This document shows positions 10,283 through 47,385 of a stretch of DNA of 64,000 nucleotides, one piece after another. Source of the stretch: Oscillospiraceae bacterium (GTDB taxonomy: Bacteria; Bacillota; Clostridia; Oscillospirales; Oscillospiraceae). Under the pieces are notes generated by a model. That model had not been told where the DNA came from. It made no database searches and worked only from the letters and a program-made list of their open reading frames with translations. The position numbers and the translations under genes are program-made. Position 1 is the stretch's first letter, and each line of letters starts with the position of its first letter. The stretch spans positions 6,984-70,983 of the forward strand of contig JAHHSM010000002.1 in assembly GCA_020025175.1 (NCBI GenBank), written 5' to 3'.

Positions 10283-10390
10283 AATTTTTCCTTCTTTGCA
10301 ATCATTTTTTCCCTTTTTCCGCCTGTTCATGCAGGCGGCTGAAAAGCACGGCTTTCTTTTCAGCCGTGCTTTTCACACGCTGCGTTATTT

Positions 10391-11998: not shown

Positions 11999-12019
11999 GC
12001 AATATGAATCCTTTCTCTG

Positions 12020-13324
12020 TCAGCGGAACAATTTGGGGACTGCGTAGTTTTCCACCTCACGATAAATTTCTTCGATATCCAGCGTGAGGAATGCCCCATT
12101 CTCATATATGATTTTTCCGCGCGCCATATTCATATACACGTTTGACGGGTTTGCAGAATAAATCAGATTTGCCTGTACGTCATGGCAGGGCCGGAGATTG
12201 GGTGCATGGAAATCCACGAGAATCAGGTCCGCCTGTGCCCCCACCTGTACAACACCGGCATGGCGCCCCTGTGCCCTGGCACCGTTGACCGTTGCCATCT
12301 TCAGCACTTGCTCGTCGCTCAGAGAGACGGGATCGAGGCTCGTGACCTTGGACAGCAGGGAAGCCAGCTTCATTTCCTCAAACATGTTGTGGTTATCGTT
12401 GGAGCTCATGCCGTCCGTTCCCAGTGCCACATTGACACCGGCACGCAGCATATCCGCAACGGGTGCCGCCCCGGATGCCAGCTTCATATTGGATGCCGGG
12501 TTGTGAATCACGCTCACGCCGCGGCGCTTGAAAATTTCCCAATCTTCAGGCGTTGTCCACACGCAGTGGGCGGCAATGGCAGGGGTATCCCACAGTCGGT
12601 ATTTCTCGAAAAGTGCCGCAGGGCTCATGCCGTGGCGCTGCTGGCACGCCAGCTGCTCGGACTTGGTTTCCGACAGATGCACATGCATTTGCAGCTTGTT
12701 TCTCCGGGCAAAATCCGCCGCCCAGGACCACAGCTTGCCGTTGGATGTATATTCGCCGTGGATGCAGGCGTCAATGCGGATCTGACCGTCATTATAATTG
12801 TGCCATTTTTCCACCAGCTCTTTTGCTTCGATGCAGGGCTGGTATGTATTGGGGTCAAAATCCTCGCTGAACACGGTTAAGCCGCGGGCAATATTTGCAT
12901 TGATGCCGCTTTTCACCACTTCTTCGATGATGTCATCACAGAAATAATACATATCGGATACCGACGTGATGCCGGAAGAAATGGCTTCTGCCAGAGAAAG
13001 GGCTGTGCCGACACGGACGGCACGGGAATCCAGCTTTTCCTCCACAGGAAAAATATACTCGTTGAGCCAGGTCTGCAAATCGTGACCGCCGCCGTAGCCG
13101 CGCATGAGGGACATGGGCAGGTGGGTATGTGCATCCACAAACCCGGGCATCAGGACCTTTCCGCTCCCGTTGACTTCGCGGTCGATCTGCTCGCCCTGCG
13201 GGCGAATGGGTCCGATATAGGCGATGATCTGACCCTTGATGAGCACAAAGCTGTCCTGCAGGACCGTATTTGCTGCATCCATACAAACCACAGTCACATG
13301 GGAAAATAAGGTATTCATGGTCAT
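12020..13324 (-). CDS. mtaD: 5-methylthioadenosine/S-adenosylhomocysteine deaminase-type amidohydrolase
   Basis: Motifs PGFVDAHTHLPMSLMRGY, HVHLSET and GTDG. Start at MTMNTLF (13324) or at the ATG at 13318, both after GAAGGA. Confidence 0.8.
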   Translation of the reverse strand: MTMNTLFSHVTVVCMDAANTVLQDSFVLIKGQIIAYIGPIRPQGEQIDREVNGSGKVLMPGFVDAHTHLPMSLMRGYGGGHDLQTWLNEYIFPVEEKLDSRAVRVGTALSLAEAISSGITSVSDMYYFCDDIIEEVVKSGINANIARGLTVFSEDFDPNTYQPCIEAKELVEKWHNYNDGQIRIDACIHGEYTSNGKLWSWAADFARRNKLQMHVHLSETKSEQLACQQRHGMSPAALFEKYRLWDTPAIAAHCVWTTPEDWEIFKRRGVSVIHNPASNMKLASGAAPVADMLRAGVNVALGTDGMSSNDNHNMFEEMKLASLLSKVTSLDPVSLSDEQVLKMATVNGARAQGRHAGVVQVGAQADLILVDFHAPNLRPCHDVQANLIYSANPSNVYMNMARGKIIYENGAFLTLDIEEIYREVENYAVPKLFR

Positions 13325-32515: not shown

Positions 32516-32544
32516 GCATAATCCATGTCTTTTTCTCATAGACT
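32516..32544 (+). promoter_or_regulatory. Candidate sigma-E-type promoter of spoIIID
   Basis: GCATAAT-N14-CATAGACT compared with the Bacillus sigma-E consensus kmATATT-N14-CATACAhT. It lies about 30 nt upstream of the spoIIID start. Confidence 0.35.
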
Positions 32545-32574
32545 GAAACAGTAAGAGGCAGGGAGTGTTGTTTT

Positions 32575-32703
32575 TTGAAAGGAAACATCGAGGAGCGTGC
32601 GATTACGCTTGCTCAATACATTATAGAGAATCGGGCCACTGTCCGCGCCGCCGCTAAACAATTCGGCATCAGTAAGTCTACCGTACATATGGTAATATAT
32701 TAA
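32575..32703 (+). pseudogene. spoIIID: spoIIID 5' segment (codons 1-38 plus 4 element-derived codons and a stop)
   Basis: The TTG start gives MKGNIEERAITLAQYIIENRATVRAAAKQFGISKSTVH, which aligns with B. subtilis SpoIIID residues 1-38 (..KERTIKIGKYIVETKKTVRVIAKEFGVSKSTVH). It then continues MVIY* and is broken inside the HTH recognition helix. Confidence 0.9.
32678..32689. repeat. attL core (CTACCGTACATA)
   Basis: The 12-bp sequence is identical to 47048..47059 and lies exactly at the point where SpoIIID similarity stops. Confidence 0.85.
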
Positions 32704-32770
32704 TGGAACGGTTTAATTGCAAGCTCACCCAGTTATTTTTCAGATTGTGAAGAATCTTATATTGTTCAAC

Positions 32771-32814
32771 AAGACTCACTGCCGAAGACCACCGGCAGTG
32801 AGTCTTTCTTTTTT
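32771..32814 (+). terminator. Rho-independent terminator just inside the left end of the element
   Basis: 14-bp stem AAGACTCACTGCCG/CGGCAGTGAGTCTT followed by a T-run. It would terminate the truncated spoIIID transcript and, in a circularised element, the recombinase gene. Confidence 0.8.
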
Positions 32815-32857
32815 ACTAAAATAATCAATCGGCGTGATTGCAAAACTCAAATATAAA

Positions 32858-32886
32858 TTGATTTTCAAGACAGCTCATAATATAAT
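32858..32886 (+). promoter_or_regulatory. Sigma-A-type promoter for the XRE-hsdMSR operon
   Basis: TTGATT-N17-TATAAT, 48 nt upstream of the XRE start. Confidence 0.55.
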
Positions 32887-32933
32887 CAATATGGATACAA
32901 ATATGCGTTCAGAAACCAAGCAGGAGGTATAAA

Positions 32934-33158
32934 ATGGCTGTCTGCTATAACAAATTATGGAAAATTTTAATTGATAAACATATGAGCAAAACGCAGCTGA
33001 TCAAGGAAGCAAAAATCAGTACCAATGCCATGGCACGATTAGGAAAAAATGAGGATGTTCGTGTGGAGGTACTTGTAAAAATTTGCAGTGTTTTGGGATG
33101 TACAATAGATGATATTATGGAAATCATTCCAGAAAAAAAGGAGAATGGAAATGGCTGA
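32934..33158 (+). CDS. XRE/Cro-type helix-turn-helix protein (possible controller of the RM operon)
   Basis: 74 aa with the [48 protein letters not shown]. Its 3' end overlaps the hsdM start by 8 nt. Confidence 0.8.
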
Positions 33159-34713
33159 TATAAAGAAAGAGCAGGAACGGGACGAGCTGCACCGTGCGAT
33201 TTGGGCAATTGCTGACGAATTGCGTGGCAGCATTGATGGCTGGGATTTTAAGTCCTATGTGCTGGGCATGATGTTTTACCGCTACATCTCGGAGAACCTG
33301 ACCAACTATCTGAACGCCGACGAGATGGAGGCCGGTAACGAGGACTTCAACTACGCCGATCTCTCTGATGAGGATGCGGAGATGGCCCGTGAGGACATGG
33401 TGCAGACCAAGGGCTTTTTCATTCTTCCCTCTGAGCTTTTCTGCAATGTGCGGAAAAATGCCGCCCACGACGAAAATCTGAATATGACGCTGGAAGCTGC
33501 GTTCCGCCATATTGAGGAATCCGCAAAGGGCAGCGAGAGCGAGGATAACTTCTCCGGTCTGTTCGATGATATTGATGTGAACAGCAACAAGCTGGGTGCG
33601 ACCGTTGCCAAGCGCAACGCCAAGTTGGTCAAGCTGATGGACGGCGTGGCTGACATGAGACTGGGCAACTATCAGGACAACAGCATTGACGCCTTCGGTG
33701 ATGCCTATGAATATCTCATGGGTATGTACGCCTCCAATGCAGGCAAGTCCGGCGGCGAGTTCTTCACTCCGCAGGAGGTGTCTGAGCTGTTGACTCGGAT
33801 TGCCGTGGTGGGCAAAACGGAAGTCAACAAGGTTTATGACCCTGCTTGCGGTTCCGGCTCTCTGCTGCTGCAAGCTGCCAAGATTCTGGGAAAGGAGAAT
33901 GTGCGTCAGGGCTTCTTTGGTCAGGAGATCAACTTGACTACTTACAACCTGTGCCGAATCAATATGTTCCTCCATGATATTGGCTATGATAAATTTGACA
34001 TTGCCCATGAGGATACCCTGATGACCCCCCAGCACTGGGATGATGAACCCTTCGAGGTCATCGTTTCCAATCCTCCGTATTCCATTAAGTGGGAGGGCGA
34101 TGATAACCCGGTGCTCATCAACGATCCCCGTTTCTCTCCTGCCGGAGTACTTGCGCCGAAATCGAAAGCCGATCTTGCATTTATCATGCACGCTTTGGCA
34201 TGGCTGGCGACCAACGGCACCGCCTCCATCGTCTGCTTCCCCGGCATCATGTACCGTGGCGGTGCAGAAAAGAAGATCCGCCAGTATCTCATTGATAACA
34301 ACTTCATCGACTGCGTGATCCAGCTGCCCGGCAACCTGTTCTATGGCACCTCCATCGCTACCTGCATCATGGTGCTGAAAAAGAACAAGCAGGACAACAG
34401 CACCCTGTTCATCGACGCCTCCAGGGAGTTTGTGAAGGTCACAAACAACAATAAGCTGACCGAGGAAAACATCAGCAAGATCGTGGCTGAATTTGCGTCA
34501 CGGGAGGATGTGGACTACTTTGCCCGCTGTGTTTCTTGGGACGAGATCAAAGAACAGGACTATAACCTGTCCGTCAGCACCTATGTGGAGCAGGAGGACA
34601 CACGGGAAGTCATTGATATTACGAAACTCAACGCTGAGATTAAGGACATCGTTGCCCGTGAGCAGATTCTGCGAGATGAGATTGATAAGATCGTGGCAGA
34701 AATCGAGGGCTGA
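33151..34713 (+). CDS. hsdM: Type I restriction-modification system, N6-adenine DNA methyltransferase subunit
   Basis: HsdM N-terminal domain ([14 protein letters not shown]), AdoMet motif [11 protein letters not shown] and catalytic VSNPPYS. The ATG lies 7 nt after AAAAAGGAGA. Confidence 0.92.
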
Positions 34714-34716
34714 GAT

Positions 34717-35877
34717 ATGAGCAGATTAGAAGAACTGATTCAGGAGCTTTGCCCCGATGGGGTGGAATATAAGAACTTAGAGAACATTTTGACAATAAAA
34801 AATGGAAGAGATTACAAGCATCTAACAGAAGGTGTTGTTCCCGTCTATGGTTCTGGTGGAATTATGACATATGTTAATCAAGCGATATATGATAAACCGT
34901 CTGTGCTTATTCCTCGAAAAGGGTCTCTTGATAAACTATACTATGTAGATGTTCCATTTTGGAATGTCGATACCATATTTTACACAGATATCAACCTAAC
35001 TGTTGCCTTGCCTAAATATGTTTATTATTATTTGCAAAGTCAACATCTAGAACGGCTTAATAAAGCCGGAGGAGTCCCCAGCCTTACACAAGCTGTGCTA
35101 AACAAGGTTAAAATTCCCGTTCCCCCTCTGCCTGTACAGGCTGAAATTGTCCGTATTTTGGACAATTTCACGGAACTGACGGCGGAACTGACGGCGGAAC
35201 TGACGGCGAGAAAGAAGCAGTATGAGTATTATAGGGATAAACTGCTAACCGTTGATAACAATGTTGAACATGTTACTATTGGTGATGTTGCAACTGTAAC
35301 AAAATTGGCGGGATTTGAATTTACCAAATATGTAAAATATACAGAGACTGGAAATATTATAGCCTTAAGAGGATTGAATGTTAAAGCTGGAAAACTTGAT
35401 TTGATGGATGTGAAATATATTGATGGTAGCGATTTATCTAAATTAACTAGAAGCAAACTTCATGTCGGTGACATGCTGTTTACTTATGTGGGTACCATCG
35501 GTCAAGTTGCACTTGTTGACGAAGAAGATAAATACTATTTAGCTCCCAATGTTGCGCTTATTCGCTCTACTGACGAGCAACTTTTGCCTCAATTTATGAG
35601 ATATTATTTTCAGAGTGGGGAGTTCTGGAAAACACAGATAAACCGTCTGTTACAATCGTCCTCTATGCAGAATATACCTATGGAGAAAATTCGGAAATTT
35701 ATTATCCCCCTCCCCCCTCTTTCTGAGCAAGAACGCATTGTCTCCATCCTCGACCGCTTCGACACCCTTTGCAATGACCTGACTTCCGGTCTGCCTGCCG
35801 AAATCGAAGCCCGCCAGAAGCAATACGAATACTACCGAGACAAGCTGCTGAGCTTTCAGGAGGTGAAAGGCTCATGA
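34717..35877 (+). CDS. hsdS: Type I RM specificity subunit (type IC-like)
   Basis: Two target-recognition domains are separated by conserved helices that repeat RKKQYEYYRDKLL / RQKQYEYYRDKLL. The central region is ELTAELTAELTA. Confidence 0.92.
   Translation: MSRLEELIQELCPDGVEYKNLENILTIKNGRDYKHLTEGVVPVYGSGGIMTYVNQAIYDKPSVLIPRKGSLDKLYYVDVPFWNVDTIFYTDINLTVALPKYVYYYLQSQHLERLNKAGGVPSLTQAVLNKVKIPVPPLPVQAEIVRILDNFTELTAELTAELTARKKQYEYYRDKLLTVDNNVEHVTIGDVATVTKLAGFEFTKYVKYTETGNIIALRGLNVKAGKLDLMDVKYIDGSDLSKLTRSKLHVGDMLFTYVGTIGQVALVDEEDKYYLAPNVALIRSTDEQLLPQFMRYYFQSGEFWKTQINRLLQSSSMQNIPMEKIRKFIIPLPPLSEQERIVSILDRFDTLCNDLTSGLPAEIEARQKQYEYYRDKLLSFQEVKGS
35171..35206 (+). repeat. Perfect 3 x 12-bp tandem repeat (CGGAACTGACGG) in the hsdS central conserved region
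   Basis: Read directly from the sequence. It encodes T(ELTA)3, the TAEL-type spacer of type IC HsdS. Confidence 0.95.
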
Positions 35878-38800
35878 GTACCTACAACATCGTGCTTTCT
35901 ACCAGTGAAAGCACCGTCGTAACTGAATATGAACCCCAGACCAAGCGCTCCGATGCATACCAGAGCGAGGCGGCGTTGGAATCTGCCTTCATCAAAATGC
36001 TGACCGAGCAGGGCTATGAGCATATCACCATTCATGATGAAGCAGGTCTGGTAGAGAATCTCCGTCGACAGCTGGAACGGCTCAATCAGTTTCGCTTTAC
36101 GGACAAGGAGTGGGACCGTTTTTTCAAGGATAAGATTGCCAATCAGAACGAAGGTATCGTTGAAAAGACCCGTAAAATGCAGGAGGATCATGTCCAGAAC
36201 CTGATTCGGGAGGACGGTACCACCATGAACATCTCCCTGATTGACAAGAAAAACATCCACAACAACCGCTTGCAGGTCATCAATCAGTATGAGATGGGAC
36301 AAGCAGAGGGCGCCAAGTACGACAACCGCTATGATGTGACCATCCTGGTCAACGGTCTGCCCCTTGTCCATGTGGAGCTGAAACGCCGTGGCGTGGCTCT
36401 GAAAGAGGCTTTCAACCAGATCAACCGCTATCAGCGGGACAGCTTCTGGGCCGGGTCTGGGCTCTATGAGTATGTCCAGATCTTCGTGATCTCCAACGGT
36501 ACCCACACCAAATATTATTCTAATACCACCCGGTTCAGCCACATCAAGGAGAACGAAGGTAGCCAACGCAGCCGCAGCAAAAAGACATCCAACAGCTTTG
36601 AGTTCACCAGCTTCTGGGCGGACGCAAACAACCATACTATTCCTGATCTTGTGGACTTCACCAAGACTTTTTTTGCCAAACACACCCTGCTGAACATCCT
36701 GACAAGGTACTGCGTATTCACCTCTGAGGAACTGCTGCTGGTCATGCGACCCTATCAGATTGTAGCGACTGAGCGAATTCTGAACCGCATTGAGGTATCC
36801 ACCAACTACAAAAAGATGGGTACGCTGGAAGCCGGTGGCTACATCTGGCACACCACCGGCAGCGGCAAGACCCTGACCTCTTTTAAGACGGCCCAGCTTG
36901 CCACCAGACTGCCCTACATCGACAAGGTGCTGTTCGTGGTGGACCGTAAGGATCTGGACTACCAGACCATCAAGGAATACGATCGCTTTGAAAAGGGGGC
37001 AGCCAACGGAAACAAGAGCACGGCGGTCTTGCAGCGTCAGCTGGAGGACACCACCTCGAAGATCATCGTGACCACCATCCAGAAGTTGGATGTGTTCATC
37101 ACCAAGAATCCCCAGCATCCCATTCGGGACAAGCACATTGTTCTGGTGTTTGATGAATGTCACCGCAGCCAGTTCGGAGATATGCACAGCCGTATTGTGG
37201 GCGGCATCATCAAAAAAGGCGAAAAGGTTATCAAGGTGGATCGTTACTTCAAGAACTACCATATTTTCGGCTTCACCGGAACCCCGATTTTCTCCGTCAA
37301 TGCCGGCACCGGGCGCAACCCAAACCTTCGGACCACCGCCCAGGCCTTTGGTGATAAGCTCCATACTTACACGATTGTGGATGCGATCAACGACGGAAAT
37401 GTGCTGCCCTTCCGCATCGACTACATTGATACGGTGAAGCAGAAGGATGGTCGAAAGGATAAGCAGGTAAAGGGCATCGACACGGAAGAAGCTCTGTCTG
37501 CACCGGAGCGGATCACAGAAGTTTCCAAGTATATTCTGGAACACTTCAACCAAAAGACCGTCCGTAATTCTTATTACAGCCTCAAGGGTCAGCGGGTAAA
37601 CGGATTCAACTCCATGTTTGCTGTTAGCTCCATCCCTGTATGCAAGAAATATTATCTGGAACTGAAAAAGCAGATTGCCGAACAGCACCGAGATCTGACC
37701 ATTGCCACGATTTTCTCCTTTGCTCCCAACGAGGAGGACAGTGCAGACGGCATTCTGGACAACGAGAGCTTTGACACGGACGGTTTGGATCAGAACTCCC
37801 GTGACTTTTTGGAAATGGCCATTGATGATTACAACAAGAAGTTTAAGGCCAACTTCGACACCTCCAGCAAGGGCTTTCAGGACTATTACAAGGATCTCTC
37901 GGACAAGGTGAAAAAGCGCCAGGTAGATCTGTTAATCGTGGTCAATATGTTCCTCACCGGCTTCGACGCTACCACTCTCAATACTCTGTGGGTTGATAAA
38001 AACTTGAAAATGCACGGCTTGATTCAGGCGTTTTCCAGAACGAACCGCATTCTGAACTCCGTCAAGACCTTTGGCAATATCGTCTGTTTCCGCAATCTGG
38101 AACAGGAAACCAATGATGCCATTGCTCTGTTCGGTGACAAGGATGCAAATGGTATTGTTCTCCTCAAATCTTATGAGGATTATTACTTTGGCTGCACCGA
38201 TGATAAAGGCAGAGATTTACCAGGCTATGAGGATCGAGTGGAAGAACTGCTGCATCGTTTCCCTTTGGGTCAGCCCATCATTGGCGAGCAGAACGAAAAG
38301 GATTTCATTGTCCTATTCGGCAATATCCTTCGCCTCCGCAATATCCTGTCAGCCTTTGACCGCTTTGCTGGGAATGAGCTTCTGGCACCCATTGACTTCC
38401 AGGACTACACCGGTATGTATCATGACCTCCATGAGAAATACAAGCGTCCCGATGGTGAGAAAGACAGTATTCTGGACGACGTTGTCTTTGAAATGGAGCT
38501 GGTCAGGCAGGTAGAGGTCAACATCGACTACATTCTCATGCTGGTGGCCAAGTATCACGATGGCAACTGTGAGGACAAGGAAATTCTGGTGGCAATCGAT
38601 AAGGCGATCAAGTCCAGCTTGCAGCTTCGCTCTAAAAAGGAACTCATTGAGCACTTCATTGATACCATCAATACCAGTACGGACGTCAATTCCGATTGGG
38701 CCAAATTCGTCCGTGAGCAGCGAGAAACAGATATTGCAGAGCTGATTCAGACCGAGAAGCTGAAGCCGGAAGAAACCAGAAAATTTGTGGATAACGCTTT

Positions 38801-38978
38801 CCGTGATGGTGTTCTGAAAACCACGGGAACTGATGTAGATCAGATCTTGCCGCCTGTCTCCCGTTTCAGCGGTGGTGGTAAGCGAGTGCAAAAGAAGCAG
38901 ACCGTCATTGAAAAGCTGAAAGCATTTTTTGAGAAGTATTTTGGACTGCTAAGTACGGATGACCGGATTATAAAATAA
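35874..38978 (+). CDS. hsdR: Type I restriction enzyme R subunit (endonuclease/translocase)
   Basis: 1034 aa with SF2 helicase motifs (TTGSGKTLTS, VFDECHRSQFG) and a size typical of type IC HsdR. The ATGA overlap with hsdS indicates coupling. Confidence 0.92.
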   Translation: MSTYNIVLSTSESTVVTEYEPQTKRSDAYQSEAALESAFIKMLTEQGYEHITIHDEAGLVENLRRQLERLNQFRFTDKEWDRFFKDKIANQNEGIVEKTRKMQEDHVQNLIREDGTTMNISLIDKKNIHNNRLQVINQYEMGQAEGAKYDNRYDVTILVNGLPLVHVELKRRGVALKEAFNQINRYQRDSFWAGSGLYEYVQIFVISNGTHTKYYSNTTRFSHIKENEGSQRSRSKKTSNSFEFTSFWADANNHTIPDLVDFTKTFFAKHTLLNILTRYCVFTSEELLLVMRPYQIVATERILNRIEVSTNYKKMGTLEAGGYIWHTTGSGKTLTSFKTAQLATRLPYIDKVLFVVDRKDLDYQTIKEYDRFEKGAANGNKSTAVLQRQLEDTTSKIIVTTIQKLDVFITKNPQHPIRDKHIVLVFDECHRSQFGDMHSRIVGGIIKKGEKVIKVDRYFKNYHIFGFTGTPIFSVNAGTGRNPNLRTTAQAFGDKLHTYTIVDAINDGNVLPFRIDYIDTVKQKDGRKDKQVKGIDTEEALSAPERITEVSKYILEHFNQKTVRNSYYSLKGQRVNGFNSMFAVSSIPVCKKYYLELKKQIAEQHRDLTIATIFSFAPNEEDSADGILDNESFDTDGLDQNSRDFLEMAIDDYNKKFKANFDTSSKGFQDYYKDLSDKVKKRQVDLLIVVNMFLTGFDATTLNTLWVDKNLKMHGLIQAFSRTNRILNSVKTFGNIVCFRNLEQETNDAIALFGDKDANGIVLLKSYEDYYFGCTDDKGRDLPGYEDRVEELLHRFPLGQPIIGEQNEKDFIVLFGNILRLRNILSAFDRFAGNELLAPIDFQDYTGMYHDLHEKYKRPDGEKDSILDDVVFEMELVRQVEVNIDYILMLVAKYHDGNCEDKEILVAIDKAIKSSLQLRSKKELIEHFIDTINTSTDVNSDWAKFVREQRETDIAELIQTEKLKPEETRKFVDNAFRDGVLKTTGTDVDQILPPVSRFSGGGKRVQKKQTVIEKLKAFFEKYFGLLSTDDRIIK

Positions 38979-38985
38979 CTGTAAT

Positions 38986-39132
38986 CTATACACAGACTCT
39001 ACTGCACCCAATCTTTGCCTCATACACAGCTGCATGATTCTCATAGACCACAAACATATCTACAGGAAGGTTTGTCTCTGTACTTTTAAAGACAGGCTCT
39101 TCATAGAAGAATTCATCCACATTGATATTCAT
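38986..39132 (-). CDS. Hypothetical small protein (48 aa)
   Basis: ORF MNINVDEFFYEEPVF... preceded by AAAGGAA. No recognisable family; it may be a gene fragment. Confidence 0.25.
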   Translation of the reverse strand: MNINVDEFFYEEPVFKSTETNLPVDMFVVYENHAAVYEAKIGCSRVCV

Positions 39133-39342
39133 TTTTTTAATTCCTTTCAATACGATATTTGAAAGCAAAAAAGCGCAGTACAGGTCATACTCCTATACTA
39201 CGCGAGAATATCATAGTCCATTGTTGCGCCAAGCATCGAAAAAGCGTATATTAATCCTGTCGGCGCGGGGAATCCCGTTGTATAGATAGAAAGCTTAACC
39301 TCAATAAATAGATACATTCGGAAAAATGGGTCACATCCAGAG

Positions 39343-39371
39343 TTGACAGCATATTCAATGCGTGGTATTAT
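39343..39371 (+). promoter_or_regulatory. Strong sigma-A-type promoter
   Basis: TTGACA-N17-TATTAT. Confidence 0.55.
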
Positions 39372-39377
39372 CCCCCA

Positions 39378-39461
39378 TAAATTACGAAGTATGATTAACC
39401 AAACGAAGACATTTGCGAAAAAGACAGTTATTCCATTTCATGGGTATAACTGTCTTTTTTT
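39378..39461 (+). ncRNA. Candidate small RNA or attenuated leader (about 85 nt)
   Basis: The near-consensus promoter is followed within about 45 nt by a terminator, AGACAGTTAT-loop-ATAACTGTCT plus T7. Only a weakly initiated ORF lies inside. Confidence 0.3.
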
Positions 39462-39548
39462 ATATTTATATTTTCATATCCCCGCGCTCCATCGCTGGAA
39501 AATTATTTAAATCGAATTTTCTGATTTTTAATATAGGAGGTGATGTGT

Positions 39549-39653
39549 ATGCTGTATTTTTTAATTTTTTCTTATAATGTTTTTAATCAGCATACTTGTC
39601 CTTTGATGTACGCCTCTAGCGATGAGATTCCAAGCTGTATAAGCGTTGGTTGA
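39549..39653 (+). CDS. Possible 34-aa upstream peptide coupled to the HTH gene
   Basis: The ATG lies 6 nt after AGGAGGTGA. The product is MLYFLIFSYNVFNQHTCPLMYASSDEIPSCISVG. Its stop TGA lies 1 nt before the ATG of the next gene. Confidence 0.25.
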   Translation: MLYFLIFSYNVFNQHTCPLMYASSDEIPSCISVG

Positions 39654-39654
39654 T

Positions 39655-40038
39655 ATGTGTAATTCTGAGCGTAATAGCTCTCGCTCAAAAGTAGGAAGTA
39701 TAGATATTGTGGAAGAACCTCTGAATTTTCAGAAGGTATTTTTCAAGAAGGTAACGGAGAAACGTAAGGAACTAAACATCTTTCAAGAAGAACTTGCACA
39801 ACGTGCCGAGGTATCTGTAGATACTATCAAGCGCTATGAGCGTGATGTGGCAAAAAATATCTACTTTAATACAGCTTGCCGCATTGCTGCAGCGTTGAAG
39901 ATAGCCTTGGGATCTTGGCTTCCAGCAGCTTATTTCGAAAATCCTGTTTTAATTAATTATGCTATTCAGCATTTAGAATCAATTTCTACAGATGTTCATA
40001 AAATGCGTGAGCTTTTGGAAAATGAAGTGGAAAGATAA
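39655..40038 (+). CDS. XRE-family helix-turn-helix regulator
   Basis: HTH segment RKELNIFQEELAQRAEVSVDTIKRYERDV. About 127 aa. Confidence 0.7.
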   Translation: MCNSERNSSRSKVGSIDIVEEPLNFQKVFFKKVTEKRKELNIFQEELAQRAEVSVDTIKRYERDVAKNIYFNTACRIAAALKIALGSWLPAAYFENPVLINYAIQHLESISTDVHKMRELLENEVER

Positions 40039-40195
40039 TTTTTTTCAATAAATAGTGAAAGGGTTACACTTTAAGGTGTAACCTCTTCACTGGTGCAGTG
40101 TATCATTTGAGATTATACTGAGAGTAGATCATGATCAGAATGGCTGTGGGTCGATCATCCCACAACAATTTTATCAAATTTAAGGAGGAAAACTC

Positions 40196-40514
40196 TATGA
40201 AACTGAATGAACTTATTATTGACCCTAAGAGCCTGGGCAACAAGCTTTGGCTTGTGGATGTAGGTCTTGCTTATGTGTATGCCAATGGACAGCGCACGGA
40301 TGCTATCTCCGGTTATCGCTATACCATCGCCCTTCCTGAAAAGGGTCTGGATAAAATTAATATCAAGATTGACGGCGATCAGCGGATGGATTCGCCTAAT
40401 GGATATACGGAGGTTCGTTTTGATGGACTTGAGGTGTTTTTGCAGTGATCTCGCGGCGATTACATTGTTGCGGGTCGTGCCACAGGCATCCATTCTGTAA
40501 ACAGTAAAAATTAA
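40196..40514 (+). pseudogene. Conjugative-element small protein (DUF961-like, tentative) with an in-frame TGA
   Basis: The ATG follows AAGGAGGAA. The 83-aa ORF ends at the TGA at 40446..40448, but the same frame continues for 21 sense codons (SRGDYIVAGRATGIHSVNSKN*) to 40514. Confidence 0.4.
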
Positions 40515-40520
40515 TGCATG

Positions 40521-40579
40521 GGCGGCGGTGGCGGCAGCGCCGCCGTTGCCATAAGGGTTAGTATTACCCTTATGGCAAC
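40521..40579. other. Two adjacent strong hairpins (possible oriT/sso-like site or terminator)
   Basis: The first is GGCGGCG-N10-CGCCGCC (40521..40544). The second is a perfect 14-bp stem GTTGCCATAAGGGT-TAGTATT-ACCCTTATGGCAAC (40545..40579). They are followed by a direct ATGTAGC ATGTAGC repeat. Confidence 0.4.
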
Positions 40580-40612
40580 CATGTAGCATGTAGCACAACA
40601 AAGGAGGTTATT

Positions 40613-41016
40613 ATGAATAATAATGCGATCTTCCGTCCGAAAAGGAGGAAGAGGCACCAGAAATGTTCAAGCTTATTCAAAATCTCCGGGCAGGTGAACC
40701 CATTATGGAGATTTTAGAGGAAAATCCTAAGCTGGCATTTAAAATCCGTGATATCGAGGTGTTGCGCCAAACGATTTTAGCAGAGAAGTACAGTGTGGAA
40801 CTCCGGCATGTGGATGTGAGCTATATTTACGGAAGCACCGGAACGGGCAAGACCTGGGGTATCTTCAAGCAGAATGAGGCCAAAGAAATTTTCCGCATTA
40901 CCAACTATAACGGAGGAAACGGTGTCCGCTTTGATGCTTATCACTGTCAGGATATTCTGGTGTTTGAGGAATTTCATGGGCAGATTCCCATTGCGGATAT
41001 GCTGAATTATTTGTAG
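40613..41016 (+). pseudogene. Fragmented replication/SF3-helicase-like P-loop protein
   Basis: An RBS-led ATG at 40613 opens a 33-codon frame. A second frame (40663..41016) encodes Walker A GSTGTGKT and a Walker B-like ILVFEEF and stops abruptly. This pattern fits a frameshifted and truncated Rep-type gene. Confidence 0.4.
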
Positions 41017-41048
41017 TTCTGGGAACTCCCTCAAACAGTGCGGTAACT

Positions 41049-41859
41049 AGAGAGGAACTGCTGAAAACAGGGCTTGTAAACAACGCAGGAGAAGTCCCCG
41101 TTCTGATTTCTAAGAAAAACGATCCGGAAAATTCCAGATTGATGATTTTAGAATTTGATCCTTGCGGAATACCACTGAGCGAATGGGAAGATAAGCAAGC
41201 ACACATCGAGGCTGCATTGAATATTACCATTGCAAAGATATTCTGGCGTAACGGGAAGAAAATCATTTGCGTTTATGCTGTCCCTGCAAAGGATGACTTT
41301 GCAGAAATACTCCCTTGGAAAGAAGAATATCTTTCTTCGCGGAACTTTACATTAGTGCTTGGTGAAAGCATGATCGGAACTGTAACTGTCAGTCTGACAC
41401 GCACCCCGCATATCTTGTTGGGCGGCTCTGCCGGCAGTGGGAAAAGTGTGCTGCTGAAATTGATGCTGATGCAGGCGTTGAAAAAGGGTGCAAATGTATA
41501 TATTGCGGATTTTAAGGGAGGTGTGGATTTTCCACCTATTTGGCATCAAAAATGCCGGATGTGCTTTGAGGAGCAGGATTTGCTGGATCTGCTGAGCAAA
41601 CTTGCAGACGAATTGCAGCATTGCAAGGAATTGTTTAGCATGATCGGATGCCAATATTCTGCCGGGTCAAATCAAGAACAATATGGATTGCTGCATCTGC
41701 GGCAGGGCGGATAACGTGCTGTCCCGGATCATTCTGGACAATACCGCTGCTGCAGATATGATCCCCAAAGATACCAGCGGACGATTTCTCCTTCAGGATG
41801 GAACAATATTTCGGGCCTATTGGTTTGAGGAATCCACACTACGGACAGGCCACAGCTAA
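41049..41859 (+). pseudogene. FtsK/SpoIIIE-family conjugative DNA translocase remnant (Tn916 orf21-like)
   Basis: Walker A LLGGSAGSGKSVLL and ADFKGGVDF are present. The N-terminal TM region is absent. The frame breaks at 41712, and the conserved C-terminal piece (DTSGRFLLQDGTIFRAYWF) continues in the +1 frame to 41859. The central ATPase part is missing. Confidence 0.7.
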
Positions 41860-41945
41860 TGGTCCTCAGCTATTTTACCAAGATAGGCATATCTGTGCAT
41901 CCTGCATCATAGGATAAAACACAGAACAGGGAGGTGGTCAAGCCA

Positions 41946-42146
41946 TTGAAAAAAGTAAAACTGAATTATCGGTTTCACAATCCGAATACGGTGGAGACCA
42001 CCGCCGATTACATAGCGAAGATTTTTGTAGAGTCAAATCGCAGAAAAGTGGAATCTCTTCTGAGCCATCATCAAACTGTCCAAAAAGAATCCATACAAAA
42101 AGAGGATCCTGCGCTTGTACATACGCCGGATAAGGAAGTCATTTAG
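41946..42146 (+). CDS. Small hypothetical protein of the kind common in Firmicute integrative elements
   Basis: The TTG start follows GGGAGG. The product is (M)KKVKLNYRFHNPNTVETTADYIAKIFVE.... I cannot name the family. Confidence 0.35.
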   Translation: MKKVKLNYRFHNPNTVETTADYIAKIFVESNRRKVESLLSHHQTVQKESIQKEDPALVHTPDKEVI

Positions 42147-42285
42147 AAAACACGAAAATGTTTCATCCGGCAATGCAAGGCGATACAAAAAAGAATTCCC
42201 AGAAAGGTTCAAATCAGAATAAACTTAACAGTCAGGCTCTGAGAGGACACTCAGGGTCTTTGTTTATCAAATTTTGAAAAGCATC

Positions 42286-42337
42286 TTGACTGCCGAGAAC
42301 TACAGATGTAGTATATGTGTAGATACTACAGATGTAG
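42286..42337 (+). promoter_or_regulatory. Promoter with two BlaI/MecI-type operator dyads
   Basis: Promoter TTGACT-N17-TAGTAT. The dyad CTACAGATGTAG (TACA/TGTA half-sites) occurs twice, at 42300..42311 and 42326..42337, overlapping the -10 region and the leader. Confidence 0.55.
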
Positions 42338-42348
42338 GAGGCGACGAG

Positions 42349-42711
42349 ATGAAGTTATCCGAAAGAGAATGGACGGTTCTGGATGCCCTCTGGAAAACGG
42401 GAGAAGCAGAACTGGGAGCGATCGTAGAGATGCTCCTGCCTGCTACAGGCTGGAACCGCAACACTGTCCTGACATACCTGACCCGCATGGAAGCCAAAGG
42501 ATTGGTGACCATTAAAAAAGATGCAGCACCCCACAGGTATCTGGCCAGCCTGAATCGAGAAGACTGTCAGGCGCAGGCTCGTCAGAGTTTTTTGAAGCGG
42601 GTGTACAGAGGTTCTGCCAGCGATATGATTGCAGCATTTCTCAAGGAAGAGCCCATATCACAAGAGGATCGGGATCATCTGCGGAAGCTGCTGGATGAAA
42701 TGGAGGTGTAA
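42349..42711 (+). CDS. BlaI/MecI/CopY-family transcriptional repressor
   Basis: Winged-helix product MKLSEREWTVLDALW...GWNRNTVLTYLTRMEAKGLV. Confidence 0.85.
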   Translation: MKLSEREWTVLDALWKTGEAELGAIVEMLLPATGWNRNTVLTYLTRMEAKGLVTIKKDAAPHRYLASLNREDCQAQARQSFLKRVYRGSASDMIAAFLKEEPISQEDRDHLRKLLDEMEV

Positions 42712-42714
42712 TCT

Positions 42715-44643
42715 ATGAGAGATATATGGGCATTTCTCATAGTCACGCTGACTGTCTCGGGTGTTGCTGCGGTTTTGCTGATTGTGAAATGGCTTCTGAA
42801 GGATAAGCTTTCTCCCAGATGGCAGTTTTCTGCGTGGCTGGTGGTATTGCTGGCAGCTTTGATTCCGGTTGGCAGCAGGTATATTCTTTTTGATTGGCCG
42901 CTGGTGGTGGAAGCAGTCAAATCCCTGCTAACCGGGGATTATGCCGTAACCAAAATCCTTGCATCGGTCCCCATGCTGCCGGAAGCTGCCCCCAGCAGTG
43001 CAGCAGATTGGATTTTTGTGATTTATTTTGCAGGTGCAGTTCTGCTGTTTGCCCACTATGTTTTTTCCTATGTCAGACTTCGCTTTTTCCTGAAAAAAGG
43101 GGAAACGCCAGCGGATGCCATTAAGACGCAAATAAAACAGGTAGAGGAAACATATGGACTTCAATGCTGCAAAGCAGTCATGGTTCCAAATCTTGAATCT
43201 GCATTTGTCTGCGGATTGTTTCGCCCAATTCTGGTCCTGCCGGAGGATCGGGACACCAATGAAAAAGTTTTGCTCCATGAGATGCTGCACTTAAAATACT
43301 GGGATGTGACCTGGGGCTGGGTGATTTGCCTGTTTCGCTGTATCCATTGGTGCAATCCATTCCTTTGGTACTGTGCCAATCGGGTGGGCAATGATCTGGA
43401 ATCGCTCTGCGATCAGCGTGTGCTGGAACGGCTGGAGGGCGAACAGCGGAGGGAATACGGACGGATTCTGCTTTCTATGGCCAACGAAAAATATGCCCGG
43501 GCTCCGGGTACTTCTTCTGCAGCCAATGGCGGAAAAAATATCCGTCAACGCATTGAAGCAATTGCCCGGTTTAAACGGTATCCCGAGGGCATGACGCTGG
43601 TTTCCGTCTGTGTTCTGATTGTACTGATGAATCCCATAGCCTATGGATGGGATGCGAGAAGCTTGGAGTACCATGGTGCGATTCAGATGCAATCTGCCCT
43701 TGCGGCGGCCCGTTTGACAGACTGCACCACCCTTGCAGGCGCGGCGGACTGCTATGGAAAAGCGCTGCTGCGCAATGAGCGCGTTTACCGCATTCTCTGC
43801 GCAAACGATCAGGAGCGGGAAGAGATCGCCGCGGAAATGGTACGGCGATCGCAACAAGACATGCCGCCCCGCTGGGACAGCGGCATGCCTAAATCTCTCG
43901 ATCCCTCAGAAGGCTACTTTGTCTATAATCTGCAGCAAAAGAGTCAGGAGCACTATGAAGCGCTCATGGCATTCCATTCCGGAGATCCAACGCAGACGAA
44001 AGAAACGATGGTCATTTATTCCCAAAAGGTTGCTTTCCGAAAAGAGAACGGAAGATGGATTACAGAACCTTTGGAGGAAATGCACCGTCTGGAGCTGACG
44101 GACGTAAACCTGCGCTGGAATTGCAGGGCACTGCCTGCCTACAGACTCGTGGCAGAGGCAGAGGACTTCCGGCTGACGCTGAACTTTCAGAAGAATTTTG
44201 AGGTAGACAATTGGGTGCAATCCTCCGAAAACGGGCCTATTTTTTCTGCCAGTACTCACTTTAATCTGCAGCCGGATCCAAATGCAGAATTTGATGCTGT
44301 CTATCAATTCAGCTGGGCGACCCTTACTTATGTGGGAGAAGATATGGACGCTGTCCATCAGGTGGGAATATCCTATGCTCCCTGGCCCGAAAATCAGGAG
44401 CGGCCGCAGCTGAATGCTCCCGGAGCAGAAACCGGTGCGTGTAGCAGCAGCGATGGCGCTTGCTGGGCCAATGAAATATTACAGAAAGGACGCGATCCGG
44501 TCATAGATCTGGGCGGAGGCGGATACAACGGACCTTTTGATGCTTCGAGTCTGACCATGCCGCAGCGCTATGCTGCAGACCTTTACATTAACGGAAAACT
44601 GGCTGCACAGTTGACCGTCTTACCGGAGGAGGAAGGAATATGA
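42715..44643 (+). CDS. BlaR1/MecR1-like M56 metalloprotease sensor with an unrecognised extracellular domain
   Basis: N-terminal TM helices and the zinc motif LLHEMLHLKYWD. A further TM helix (MTLVSVCVLIVLM) is followed by about 330 aa with no penicillin-binding SxxK/KTG motifs. Confidence 0.8.
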   Translation: MRDIWAFLIVTLTVSGVAAVLLIVKWLLKDKLSPRWQFSAWLVVLLAALIPVGSRYILFDWPLVVEAVKSLLTGDYAVTKILASVPMLPEAAPSSAADWIFVIYFAGAVLLFAHYVFSYVRLRFFLKKGETPADAIKTQIKQVEETYGLQCCKAVMVPNLESAFVCGLFRPILVLPEDRDTNEKVLLHEMLHLKYWDVTWGWVICLFRCIHWCNPFLWYCANRVGNDLESLCDQRVLERLEGEQRREYGRILLSMANEKYARAPGTSSAANGGKNIRQRIEAIARFKRYPEGMTLVSVCVLIVLMNPIAYGWDARSLEYHGAIQMQSALAAARLTDCTTLAGAADCYGKALLRNERVYRILCANDQEREEIAAEMVRRSQQDMPPRWDSGMPKSLDPSEGYFVYNLQQKSQEHYEALMAFHSGDPTQTKETMVIYSQKVAFRKENGRWITEPLEEMHRLELTDVNLRWNCRALPAYRLVAEAEDFRLTLNFQKNFEVDNWVQSSENGPIFSASTHFNLQPDPNAEFDAVYQFSWATLTYVGEDMDAVHQVGISYAPWPENQERPQLNAPGAETGACSSSDGACWANEILQKGRDPVIDLGGGGYNGPFDASSLTMPQRYAADLYINGKLAAQLTVLPEEEGI

Positions 44644-45212
44644 GCGAAAGAGAAAAACTCTATACCGGCGTGTCCAGAGCGGCATGGGGCTGCTTCTTTC
44701 TGTACTTGAATGTAAACCTTAACAGCATCAATCTTCTGCCGAATTTCGTTGGCTATCTGCTGTTCCTGTCTGCAATTTCCCTTCTCAAGGAGCAGGTCAG
44801 AGACCTCGGACTGCTGCGCCCCCTTGGCATCTTGCTGGTAGTCTGGACGGCGGCAGAATGGGCGCTGACCATCATGGGGATTCCGCTGGGAGCGGTTGCA
44901 CCTGTGCTCGCTCTCATTGTGGCGGCAATCAGCCTGTATTTCATTTTTCAGCTGTTTACAGACCTGGCGGTTCTGGCAAAAACCTATCAGAACCAGTGGG
45001 AGAACTACGATCAGAAGCTCATCAAATGGCGTACTGTCCAGGTGCTTTTGAGTATGTTCCTGTATCTGCCGATTCTCAGATGGGCAGTGGGAACGGATTG
45101 GGAACTGTGGATTGCAATTCCTCTGGTAGTCGTCAGCTTCATCACCGGCATCCGGCTGATGACCCTGCTCTTTTCCATGCGCAAATTATTTGCTGCCAAG
45201 CAAACGGAATAG
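44640..45212 (+). CDS. Integral membrane protein, unknown function (coupled to the M56 gene)
   Basis: An ATGA start/stop overlap links it to the upstream gene. 190 aa with about 5 TM helices. Confidence 0.5.
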   Translation: MSEREKLYTGVSRAAWGCFFLYLNVNLNSINLLPNFVGYLLFLSAISLLKEQVRDLGLLRPLGILLVVWTAAEWALTIMGIPLGAVAPVLALIVAAISLYFIFQLFTDLAVLAKTYQNQWENYDQKLIKWRTVQVLLSMFLYLPILRWAVGTDWELWIAIPLVVVSFITGIRLMTLLFSMRKLFAAKQTE

Positions 45213-45305
45213 TGCTGTGATCCGTGGATGTTTCGCTGGTGCCGGGATCTGAAAAATACGATCCGCAATGTGGTGCTTGAAACTCTTGCTGTGCAGGCAA
45301 TCGAA

Positions 45306-45346
45306 GGTACGGTGCAGCCCCTCTTTTGGGCTGCACCGTACCTTTT
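45306..45346 (+). terminator. Rho-independent terminator
   Basis: 15-bp stem GGTACGGTGCAGCCC/GGGCTGCACCGTACC followed by TTTT. Confidence 0.75.
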
Positions 45347-45398
45347 CAAAAACTTTCTTATGAGGGGCAGGCTTTTGCGGAATCCTCGTTTGTATCCC

Positions 45399-45427
45399 TT
45401 GCAAGTTGATTTCTAGTTTTATATAAT
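45399..45427 (+). promoter_or_regulatory. Sigma-A-type promoter of the recombinase gene
   Basis: TTGCAA-N17-TATAAT, about 40 nt upstream of the GTG start. Confidence 0.5.
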
Positions 45428-45468
45428 AGATATACAAGAGCGATTTGGACATGTCAGGGGGTATTTTT

Positions 45469-47217
45469 GTGAAAATTGCCGCATATTGCCGTGTATCTAC
45501 CGAAAAAGAAGACCAGTTGAATAGTCTTGAAGCGCAAAAGAAATTTTTTCAAGAGTACACTGTGCGCACCGGCGATACTTTGGTGCGCCTATATGCAGAC
45601 GAAGGAATTTCCGGCACCAAAACCAAAAACCGGAAAGAATTTTTGCACTTAATGCGGGATGCCGAGCACAACCTCTTTGATATGGTGGTGGTCAAAGACA
45701 TTTCTCGCTTTGCCAGAAATACCGTTGATTTGCTTCAAAATGTGCGGAAATTAAAAGCCTTAGGGATTGAAACCCTGTTCCTTACGGCTAATATGACATC
45801 GATGGGCAACAGTGAGTTTGTCCTGACCATCTTCGGCGCACTTGCGCAGGAAGAAAGCGCCAACACCTCCAAACGCGTAAAGTTCGGGAAAAAAATAAAC
45901 GCAGAAAAAGGTCGTGTTCCAAACATTGTGTATGGCTATAACAAAACTGCCGGGGATTACTTCCGTTTGACGATCAATGAAGAAGAGGCCGCTGTCATCC
46001 GGCAGATTTATCAGTGGTATATCGAAGAAGGGTATGGCACTGCCAAAATTGCCATCATGCTCAACGAGCGCGGGCTGAAAACCAAGCGAAACTGCAACTG
46101 GAACGCAAACGGTGTGGCTAGAATTCTAACCAATGAACTGTATACGGGCAAAATCATTAACGGAAAAGAAGAAGTAAGTGATTTTCTCACCGGCACTCGC
46201 ATAGAAAAAAGCGCTGATGAATGGTTGGTGACTGATCGATCAGAACTGCAGATTATTGACCCCGAAGTTCAGAATCAAGCAAGAGAGATTATGCAGTCTC
46301 GCGGAAACAGTTTCAAACTGGATCGGAAACGAGAGAGCAATAAATATCTTTTCTCTACCCTGATCAAATGCAAAGAGTGCGGATGGTCTTTCCGCCGCAC
46401 AGTCCGCACCTACAAAAATACCTATATCCGCTGGGTCTGCTCCGGCCACAACGGTCGGGGCGCCGATAGCTGCCCCAATGCAATTGCTGTGGACGAGAAC
46501 GAGCTGATTGCGGTTTTGGAGGCATACTTTGCCAATATTTTAAAAGCAAAGAAAAATATCATTCGCTATGTCGTCGGCGAATTCAACCGTACCTATAAGG
46601 CGAAAAGCGAAAATAGATCATACGAAAAAGAACTTCGGGACAAGCTGTCCAAGATGGAAAAGACCCGCCAGAAATACATGGATATGTATACGGATGATCT
46701 GATTTCCCGTGAGGAACTGAACACTAAAATCGGTTGGATGCGTAAAGAAATGGAGCACATGGAAAATGATCTGCATCTGATCGAATTAAACATCGAGAAA
46801 AGCGACCAGCTGGAAGAATTGATTCAATGCACATTTTCCACCATCGAAACTATTGCAGATGTACGCACTATGAGCAATGCGCAGCTGAAAAAAATTATTA
46901 AAAAAATTGAAGTGGATAAAGATGGGAATGTCGATATCTATCTCCGGCTGCTGGGTGATTTAGGCTTAGATGACGAAGTTTTGGTGCAGCTGAACAATGA
47001 TGTGATAAATTTGGATCAGGCCGCCGGAGAAGCGTTCGATTTATCCACTACCGTACATAAAGATCTTTCTGATCGCTTACCGAAATTTAATCGCACGCTC
47101 TATTTGCAGGTGAAGGAAGTGCTGGATGTCAACAAGGCACAGCGCCATATTCGAGGTGGGCTGGCCACGAAGGAAAAATATCTCCATCAGGCACAGGAAG
47201 CTGCCCGGCATCGCTAA
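45469..47217 (+). CDS. Large serine recombinase, fused in frame across attR to the SpoIIID C-terminal 52 aa
   Basis: Resolvase domain VKIAAYCRVSTEKEDQLNSLEAQ...VVVKDISRFARN, a recombinase domain, the zinc ribbon CKECGW...WVCSGH and a coiled coil. There is no stop before 47217. The last 52 aa, KDLSDRLP...RHIRGGLATKEKY, are SpoIIID sequence. GTG start after AGGGGG; the longest-ORF start is 45445. Confidence 0.9.
   Translation: MKIAAYCRVSTEKEDQLNSLEAQKKFFQEYTVRTGDTLVRLYADEGISGTKTKNRKEFLHLMRDAEHNLFDMVVVKDISRFARNTVDLLQNVRKLKALGIETLFLTANMTSMGNSEFVLTIFGALAQEESANTSKRVKFGKKINAEKGRVPNIVYGYNKTAGDYFRLTINEEEAAVIRQIYQWYIEEGYGTAKIAIMLNERGLKTKRNCNWNANGVARILTNELYTGKIINGKEEVSDFLTGTRIEKSADEWLVTDRSELQIIDPEVQNQAREIMQSRGNSFKLDRKRESNKYLFSTLIKCKECGWSFRRTVRTYKNTYIRWVCSGHNGRGADSCPNAIAVDENELIAVLEAYFANILKAKKNIIRYVVGEFNRTYKAKSENRSYEKELRDKLSKMEKTRQKYMDMYTDDLISREELNTKIGWMRKEMEHMENDLHLIELNIEKSDQLEELIQCTFSTIETIADVRTMSNAQLKKIIKKIEVDKDGNVDIYLRLLGDLGLDDEVLVQLNNDVINLDQAAGEAFDLSTTVHKDLSDRLPKFNRTLYLQVKEVLDVNKAQRHIRGGLATKEKYLHQAQEAARHR
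47048..47059. repeat. attR core (CTACCGTACATA)
   Basis: Identical to 32678..32689. SpoIIID similarity resumes immediately after it. Confidence 0.85.
47060..47217 (+). pseudogene. spoIIID: spoIIID 3' segment (codons 39-90)
   Basis: KDLSDRLPKFNRTLYLQVKEVLDVNKAQRHIRGGLATKEKYLHQAQEAARHR* aligns with B. subtilis KDLTERLPEINPDLANEVKEILDYHKSIRHLRGGEATKLKY. It is in frame with the 5' segment once the element is removed. Confidence 0.9.
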
Positions 47218-47261
47218 AAAACGTGGGAACCTGTTTTTCTGTACAGATTCCCACGTTTTTC
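47216..47261 (+). terminator. Native spoIIID terminator
   Basis: ACGTGGGAA-loop-TTCCCACGT followed by T5, directly after the TAA. Confidence 0.7.
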
Positions 47262-47385
47262 GGTTTTCGCTATTTTGACTGCAACGGCGCACAACAGGTG
47301 CACTTGCCATTTGGCAAAATCACTTTTGTCGAAGGAAGGAGCTTTCTGTTTTTGCTGCCACAGATCTGTATATGCTTTTTCTATC

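Follow-up and report, generated by a model that had tools for sequence, protein, structure and literature searches.

Why does the recombinase gene of an integrative element have no stop codon of its own, and does the C-terminus that it takes from the interrupted host gene serve the element? The question is raised by a 14.4-kb integrative element (32690..47059) inserted in spoIIID of an Oscillospiraceae bacterium. The window analyzed here is the whole stretch of 64,000 nucleotides (nt) from contig JAHHSM010000002.1 of assembly GCA_020025175.1 (positions 6,984 to 70,983 of the forward strand), and all coordinates given without an accession or locus are those of the window. An earlier note had described the open reading frame (ORF) of the large serine recombinase (LSR) of this element as running without a stop through a 12-bp core and 52 spoIIID codons (residues 39-90), and had proposed that the resulting exchange of tails could be a regulatory device. 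We reproduced the reading frame together with its coordinates and found that the ORF indeed has two ends, depending on the integration state. The proposed function fared less well, and the tail exchange is probably a tolerated by-product of the way in which the integrase gene and its attachment site are packed together.

The two 3' ends of the recombinase reading frame

In the integrated form, the LSR ORF extends on the forward (+) strand from the GTG at 45469 to the TAA at 47215..47217 and comprises 582 codons plus the stop. An AGGGGG sequence lies 8 nt 5' of the GTG, and the homologues begin with MNIAAYCRVST at the same point. Residues 1-530 (45469..47058, +) make up the recombinase proper, which consists of a resolvase catalytic domain, a recombinase domain, a zinc ribbon, a long helical insert and a variable acidic tail, the last of which has the P arm of the attachment site attP within its coding sequence. 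The catalytic domain was recognized by Pfam as PF00239 (E 2e-32, residues 3-149), and the protein also matches PF07508 (E 2e-20) and PF13408 (E 3e-12). The YCRVST motif with the serine nucleophile, Ser10, is invariant in both alignments made; the window LSR is 70-81% identical to homologues and has all the invariant columns. A structure model of the 582-residue chimera, built on a 26-sequence alignment, had a mean predicted local distance difference test score (pLDDT) of 60.9, with values below 50 at residues 505-538 and 555-582; residues 361-460 form long helices in this low-confidence model.

The longest exact repeat shared by the two junctions of the element is 12 bp, CTACCGTACATA, at 32678..32689 and 47048..47059. 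The LSR frame, which reads ...GEAFDLSTTVH and then KDLSDRLPKFN..., is free of stops before, in and after this repeat as far as the stop of spoIIID. The 3' segment of spoIIID (codons 39-90 plus the stop, 47059..47217, +) is in the same frame as the LSR and contributes the last 52 residues of the chimera, of which residues 521-574 match PF12116 (SpoIIID) and residues 526-572 match TIGR02844. The 5' segment of spoIIID (codons 1-38, 32575..32688, +) was located by tblastn and translation, and it continues as four element-derived codons, MVIY, before the TAA at 32701..32703. Joining the outer flanks in silico yielded a protein of 90 residues that covers positions 2-81 of the 82 in PF12116 (E 9e-39); the element is thus inserted inside the spoIIID ORF, and its in-silico excision restores SpoIIID precisely. 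When the ends of the element were joined to rebuild the circular form, the LSR became a protein of 534 residues that ends in STTVH-MVIY at the TAA at 32701..32703, as the earlier note had said. At the level of the ORF, therefore, the LSR has two ends that depend on the integration state, 534 residues in the circle and a 582-residue chimera in the chromosome.

Whether the exchange point itself lies inside the coding region was judged from the attachment sites. The attL site (32662..32716, +) combines the B arm from spoIIID with the P' arm at the left end of the element (TATGGTAATATATTAATGGAACGGTTT); its predicted crossover dinucleotide, CA, is at 32686..32687, and the stop of the circular-form LSR at 32701..32703 falls inside the P' arm. 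The attR site (47030..47085, +) combines the P arm, which is the last ~9 codons of the LSR (GCGTTCGATTTATCCACTACCGTA), with the B' arm from spoIIID, and its predicted CA is at 47056..47057, in the codon for His38. The half-sites were compared in the 8 complete elements for which both halves of spoIIID are present. In every one of them the reconstructed attP is an imperfect palindrome about the central CA, with 16-19 of 30 positions identical between P and P' around the CA, against 6-10 of 30 between B and B'. P and P' share the motif CCGTTC(T/C)A, which is followed by 18 nt to the central CA. This layout, a palindromic attP with a non-palindromic center of 2 bp and an attB of low symmetry, fits the pattern of serine integrases. 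The stretch common to attL and attR, however, is 12 bp in the window only; in relatives it is 2-10 bp, and in one of them (L009) it is little more than the CA. The 12-bp core of the earlier note is thus present, but its length is particular to the window host, and the feature conserved across relatives is the central CA dinucleotide.

From the junctions and the symmetry about the CA, we infer that the 2-bp crossover is the CA in the codon for His38, and this places the crossover inside the LSR coding region, as the earlier note had held. With the crossover at this CA, all of the P arm must be coding, and the stop must fall to its right. The native C-terminal residues of the LSR, AFDLSTTVH, resemble SpoIIID QFGISKSTVH, and such a likeness is expected because one protein binds both the P and the B arms, which are alike near the center.

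What follows the crossover in relatives

Scanning a single genome for each species yielded 80 loci (L001-L080) from Oscillospiraceae, Lachnospiraceae and others, or 81 with the window. The LSR directly abuts the 3' part of spoIIID, at the same codon, in 78 of the 81; both halves of spoIIID were present in 8 loci, and these define elements of 3.7 to 14.4 kb. A protein search likewise returned many homologues of 573-578 residues, 70-81% identical, that also carry a SpoIIID domain. One widespread LSR family of gut Clostridia thus targets a single site in spoIIID, the codon for His38 of the recognition helix. Close relatives in the protein search ranged from 511 to 961 residues, and some had foreign C-terminal domains.

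The survey of homologues for stops beyond attP, which the earlier note had suggested, showed that almost all members of the family have their stop at the crossover or past it. Most members end in a manner different from that of the window. In 54 of the 81 loci, the LSR is one nucleotide out of frame with spoIIID and stops at once, at an ACA-TAA whose TAA is made of the T of a host CAT and the AA of the AAR codon that follows. The circular form is the longer one in these majority-frame lineages, by 14-22 residues (e.g. ...HTYGSDKIERFVRAVYMVK or ...HTYGCNKIERLIKKEIWTII, each followed by a stop), and its tail is conserved only over the first ~8 residues, which are encoded by P' arm DNA. In nine of the 81 loci the host has CAC-AAG; the stop is lost, and the ORF runs on out of frame. 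The LSRs with nonsense tails in the databases, among proteins of 520-961 residues, arise because CAC-AAG hosts lack the stop in the core.

The state seen in the window, in frame with spoIIID to its stop, was also found in L001, L009 and 39 of the listed homologous protein clusters. Native, circular tails of this in-frame type are known only for the window (MVIY) and for L009 (IEVT); a 5' part of spoIIID was sought within 10 kb of three further in-frame LSRs (L082-L084), and none was present. A recombinase gene ending before the attachment core, which the earlier note had regarded as evidence against its proposal, was encountered once in 191 sequences: the LSR of L023 shares the frame of spoIIID but finishes eight codons short of the crossover, at a TAA within the P arm.

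The borrowed sequence is not always that of spoIIID. A related mobilizable element (L085, 3120..3698 and 10001..12025), whose LSR is ~78% identical, interrupts a DUF362 gene, again about a CA center, and its LSR frame coincides with that of the gene and takes in 163 of its residues. In-frame insertion of this type accounts for the 674-residue 'recombinase-DUF362' proteins encoded in many contigs. Taken over the family, the exchanged tails have no conserved functional determinant, being absent, junk, SpoIIID, DUF362 or 4-22 residues encoded by P'.

Several further observations concern the ends of the family. A 55%-identical LSR (L089; MT838016.1, 2058..3900) has the same junction and enters the 3' part of spoIIID in a different frame. 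MT838016.1 is recorded as 'Bacteriophage sp.' from a faecal virome; we rejected it as a phage and consider it a chromosomal fragment with an LSR-spoIIID junction. The free attP form was also sought in plasmid and phage collections, and nothing above 55% identity was recovered. One LSR of the window clade (P0031; L081, 3776..5850) keeps ...PTTVHKD and then continues with DGVIIGTVKGNAKKH to a stop; a terminator and RepA_N/ParA/ParB genes follow on its 3' side, where spoIIID would otherwise stand. This may be a free or plasmid-borne (circular) form, or an insertion in another target. In the attR of L007, L016, L037 and L045, the host SpoIIID reads H-M-D or H-T-D, not H-K-D, past the crossover (e.g. 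ACA TAT GGA TGT), and these host arms resemble the P' arm of the element (TATGGTTGT). They could represent natural variation or the trace of a past recombination.

By-product or device

Given these endings, we consider it likely, with a probability of about two in three, that the tail exchange is a tolerated by-product of a compact int-attP module situated in a variable, probably disordered C-terminal extension. The integrase gene and attP would form one module, in which the last ~9 LSR codons double as the P arm and the crossover falls at the CA of the His codon, and the DNA to the right of the crossover would complete the LSR ORF, whichever DNA that is. In the circle, the P' arm would supply MVIY and a stop, followed by the left-end terminator; in the chromosome, the rest of spoIIID would supply the tail, giving LSR(1-530)-SpoIIID(39-90) on an mRNA that reaches the spoIIID terminator. 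Control of excision would fall to a separate factor, as it does in skin and SPbeta, for which the ORF at 41934..42146 is a candidate. The segment from GDLGL to the crossover is hypervariable in the LSR family (9-65 residues, of low complexity, acidic or asparagine/threonine-rich), and serine integrases with C-terminal fusions stay active (PMC5737554). Functional tuning by the tail is unsupported because the post-crossover peptide varies in presence, length, frame and sequence, and such conservation as the tails show is explained by selection on the attP DNA and on spoIIID itself.

The frame was further traced on a neighbor-joining tree of 191 recombinase cores. This sample is biased, since the query contained the SpoIIID tail and fusions therefore rank higher, and some of the in-frame cases are metagenomic singletons. 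In-frame fusions fall at several places in the tree. Two in-frame proteins, P0049 and P0041, are 98.4% and 98.0% identical to LSRs that stop in the core (L026 and L065, respectively). The frame is evolutionarily labile, as LSRs 98% identical to each other differ in it, and in one case the in-frame state stems from a P arm shortened by 1 nt.

Part of the evidence weighs against the by-product reading. The chance that an LSR frame coincides with the spoIIID frame is 1 in 3 when taken alone, and the coincidence gains significance because it recurs in more than 40 protein clusters. The in-frame fusions comprise at least four tail architectures (35, 32, 22-24 and 16 residues past GDLGL), in-frame read-through persists across 70-100% identity, and the third possible frame was not seen among the 191 sequences; such recurrence, with one frame missing, could be a sign that reading in frame is selected. 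In addition, AFDLSTTVH completes a SpoIIID-like recognition helix, with the PF12116 match beginning at residue 521, and the chimera could thus possess a partly functional DNA-binding element.

These points are what would favor a functional isoform switch, in which the SpoIIID tail alters the stability, DNA targeting or directionality of the LSR, for instance by tuning the chimera for excision. The chimera holds, besides the helix, the C-terminal basic region of SpoIIID, and both regions are reported as needed for DNA binding by SpoIIID (PMC3789822, legend to Fig. S3). There are also precedents in the altered Int activity of Mx8 (PMC6070905) and in fusions of an integrase to its directionality factor that flip directionality (PMC5737554). 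Nevertheless, a switch of this kind is doubtful. Most family members have no SpoIIID tail or have junk tails, the frame can switch between LSRs with 98% identity, and L023 is without the terminal residues altogether; selection on spoIIID and on attP DNA would fully account for the conservation of the tail, the conserved small partner protein at 41934..42146 is available as a conventional directionality factor, and the in-frame share is inflated by the ranking bias. The bolder version, somewhat less probable still, is that the stop-less LSR is a sensor of the integration state, its C-terminus reporting whether the element is free or inserted. In the lineages where in-frame fusions evolved recurrently, the SpoIIID helix and basic tail would then set the integrated enzyme apart, for example by making it competent for excision, by altering its stability or by directing it to SpoIIID-type sites, and would so link excision to spoIIID. 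The SpoIIID tail as a selected device, which the earlier note had proposed, is not borne out by a family in which nothing, junk, SpoIIID or DUF362 follows the crossover, and in which the attP-form tails are conserved only over P' arm DNA. On sequence grounds, a device that needs the SpoIIID peptide appears less likely than a by-product.

Selection could act on the ending without acting on the peptide, if reading in frame were a safe ending, with a C-terminus that is defined and soluble and a stop whatever the host. The majority frame relies on a host CAT-AAR, CAC-AAG hosts give junk tails of tens to hundreds of residues, and in-frame lineages always finish at the spoIIID stop. We regard such a benefit as unlikely: the His38 codon of the in-frame hosts is mixed, being CAT in the window, L083 and L084 and CAC in L001, L009 and L082, with no association between the in-frame state and a host CAC in these six cases, and junk-tailed LSRs are common and widespread and so are evidently tolerated. 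Most improbable of all is an artefact or decay, that is, a stop missing through a sequencing or assembly error or in an LSR that degenerates in an immobilized element. Some in-frame variants may be defective (the P arm of L083 is 1 nt shorter between CGTTC and CA), and some in-frame proteins are metagenomic singletons, but the window ORF is full length, keeps every invariant residue and the 18-nt spacing of the P arm, and the 35-residue tail architecture is found in over 30 independent clusters, of which some contain dozens of sequences. An artefact or pseudogene was rejected on this conservation of ORF, residues and tail architecture.

The element and its relation to known systems

A strong terminator stands behind each of the two ends of the LSR frame. 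At the left end, an intrinsic terminator (32771..32814, +) consists of a hairpin at 32771..32806 with a 14-bp stem (-25.8 kcal/mol, z score -7.9) and a T-run, and a comparable hairpin with a T-run lies at most 160 nt from attL in most of the 8 complete elements. The earlier note had recognized this strong hairpin and had seen no obvious gene for it to terminate; the hairpin is confirmed, whereas the second part does not hold, since when the element is integrated it ends the truncated spoIIID transcript. It is predicted to end the LSR mRNA in the circle and the truncated 5'-spoIIID transcript in the chromosome. In 32520..32575, 5' of spoIIID, GCATAATCC-N12-CATAGACT resembles, by eye, a sigma-E-type promoter, and this site would drive a truncated 42-codon ORF into the left-end terminator. 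Integrated LSR mRNA would end instead at the terminator of spoIIID (47217..47262, +; -25.8 kcal/mol, z score -6.4). Between the upstream cargo genes and the LSR gene, a further terminator hairpin (45303..45345, +; -35.8 kcal/mol, z score -8.9) is predicted to insulate the LSR gene from the upstream cargo. The sole promoter-type signal found upstream of the LSR was a sigma-A-like site, TTGCAA-17-TATAAT (45399..45427, +), which rests on a match to 10 of the 12 consensus positions.

Besides the LSR gene, the element carries two helix-turn-helix (HTH) genes, a complete type I restriction-modification (R-M) system (33109..38978), a truncated FtsK-like gene, a BlaI/BlaR1-like pair and a membrane protein gene. 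The FtsK/SpoIIIE-like fragment (41139..41714) encodes 191 residues, and relatives such as L082 have a gene of 437 residues. The BlaI/BlaR1-like pair and the membrane protein (42274..45212) sit between a conserved small ORF and the LSR. The fragment and the insert suggest a decayed transfer module and a later insertion of cargo. The small ORF (41934..42146, +) encodes 70 residues (..KLNYRFHNPNT..; LKKVKLNYRFHNPNTVETTADYIAKIFVESNRRKVE...), and tblastn detected a homologue in 73 of the 81 loci, usually just 5' of the LSR; in the window the BlaI/BlaR1-like insert parts the two. It belongs to no Pfam or NCBIfam family and gave one weak match to a PHROG of unknown function. It is a candidate accessory or directionality factor.

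Defense cargo varies over the family. Besides the type I R-M system of the window (33109..38978), McrBC with AAA/RloB (L083, 1554..9842), a MunI-type R-M system (L085, 4091..5836) and HamA plus a helicase with an EcoO109I-type R-M system (L087, 782..5834) were observed, and some elements carry Mob_Pre, Rep/FtsK or conjugation genes. The members of the family look like integrative mobilizable or conjugative elements, not prophages.

A compact int-attP module is common to a large family that splits spoIIID, a key mother-cell regulator, in many gut Oscillospiraceae and Lachnospiraceae, and this family, with its integrase gene ending inside attP, may be a more valuable result than the tail swap. 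It explains several odd database proteins (recombinase-SpoIIID, recombinase-DUF362 and long nonsense tails) as consequences of integration and not as new architectures. Natural serine integrases are evidently tolerant of very different C-terminal extensions, which is relevant to the engineering of integrase fusions. The interruption of spoIIID also raises a question of sporulation timing, as the regulator that normally helps to switch on such recombinases is itself the interrupted gene.

Among sporulation-intervening elements, the window element is comparable to skin/SpoIVCA in sigK, SPbeta/SprA in spsM, gin/GirC in gerE and skinCd (PMC4191935, PMC5595907, PMC6957869, PMC5025042). All interrupt a mother-cell sporulation gene, have an LSR at one end, allow precise in-silico repair of the ORF and are expected to use a small directionality factor. 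The window element differs in its target, spoIIID, and in its cargo, which is that of an integrative mobilizable or conjugative element with defense genes and not of a prophage. A search of the literature, from which most subscription journals were absent, gave no description of an element interrupting spoIIID; in the same incomplete literature, neither the papers on skin, SPbeta, gin and skinCd nor others mentioned an LSR ORF that runs through attR into the target gene.

Synthetic fusions of phiC31 and Bxb1 integrases to their directionality factors resemble the chimera in that the integrase accepts a polypeptide joined to its C-terminus through a flexible linker, which can alter its directionality (PMC5737554). 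In these engineered proteins the added part is the integrase's own directionality factor, whereas nothing indicates that SpoIIID(39-90) acts on the LSR. The integration-dependent immunity of mycobacteriophage BPs and its relatives is similar in having attP in a coding region, so that integration changes a C-terminus (PMC4557955). There the gene is that of the repressor, and integration removes a conserved C-terminal degradation tag (PMC4557955); the window family has no conserved peptide tag in either form, and its tails differ from one another in both length and sequence.

The nearest precedent is IntP/IntX of myxophage Mx8, and on its account the earlier note's claim of novelty was too broad. 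In Mx8, attP is located inside int, and on integration int acquires a new 3' end and its product an altered activity, so that integrases with different C-termini are encoded by the prophage and by the free phage (PMC6070905, citing Tojo 1996 and Magrini 1999). Mx8 Int is a tyrosine recombinase with tRNA-linked target sites, and its altered activity was shown by experiment. The window gene encodes an LSR, which takes its new tail in frame from the C-terminus of the host protein that the element interrupts. Should the tail prove to affect activity, the window LSR would be a natural serine-family counterpart of Mx8 IntP/IntX.

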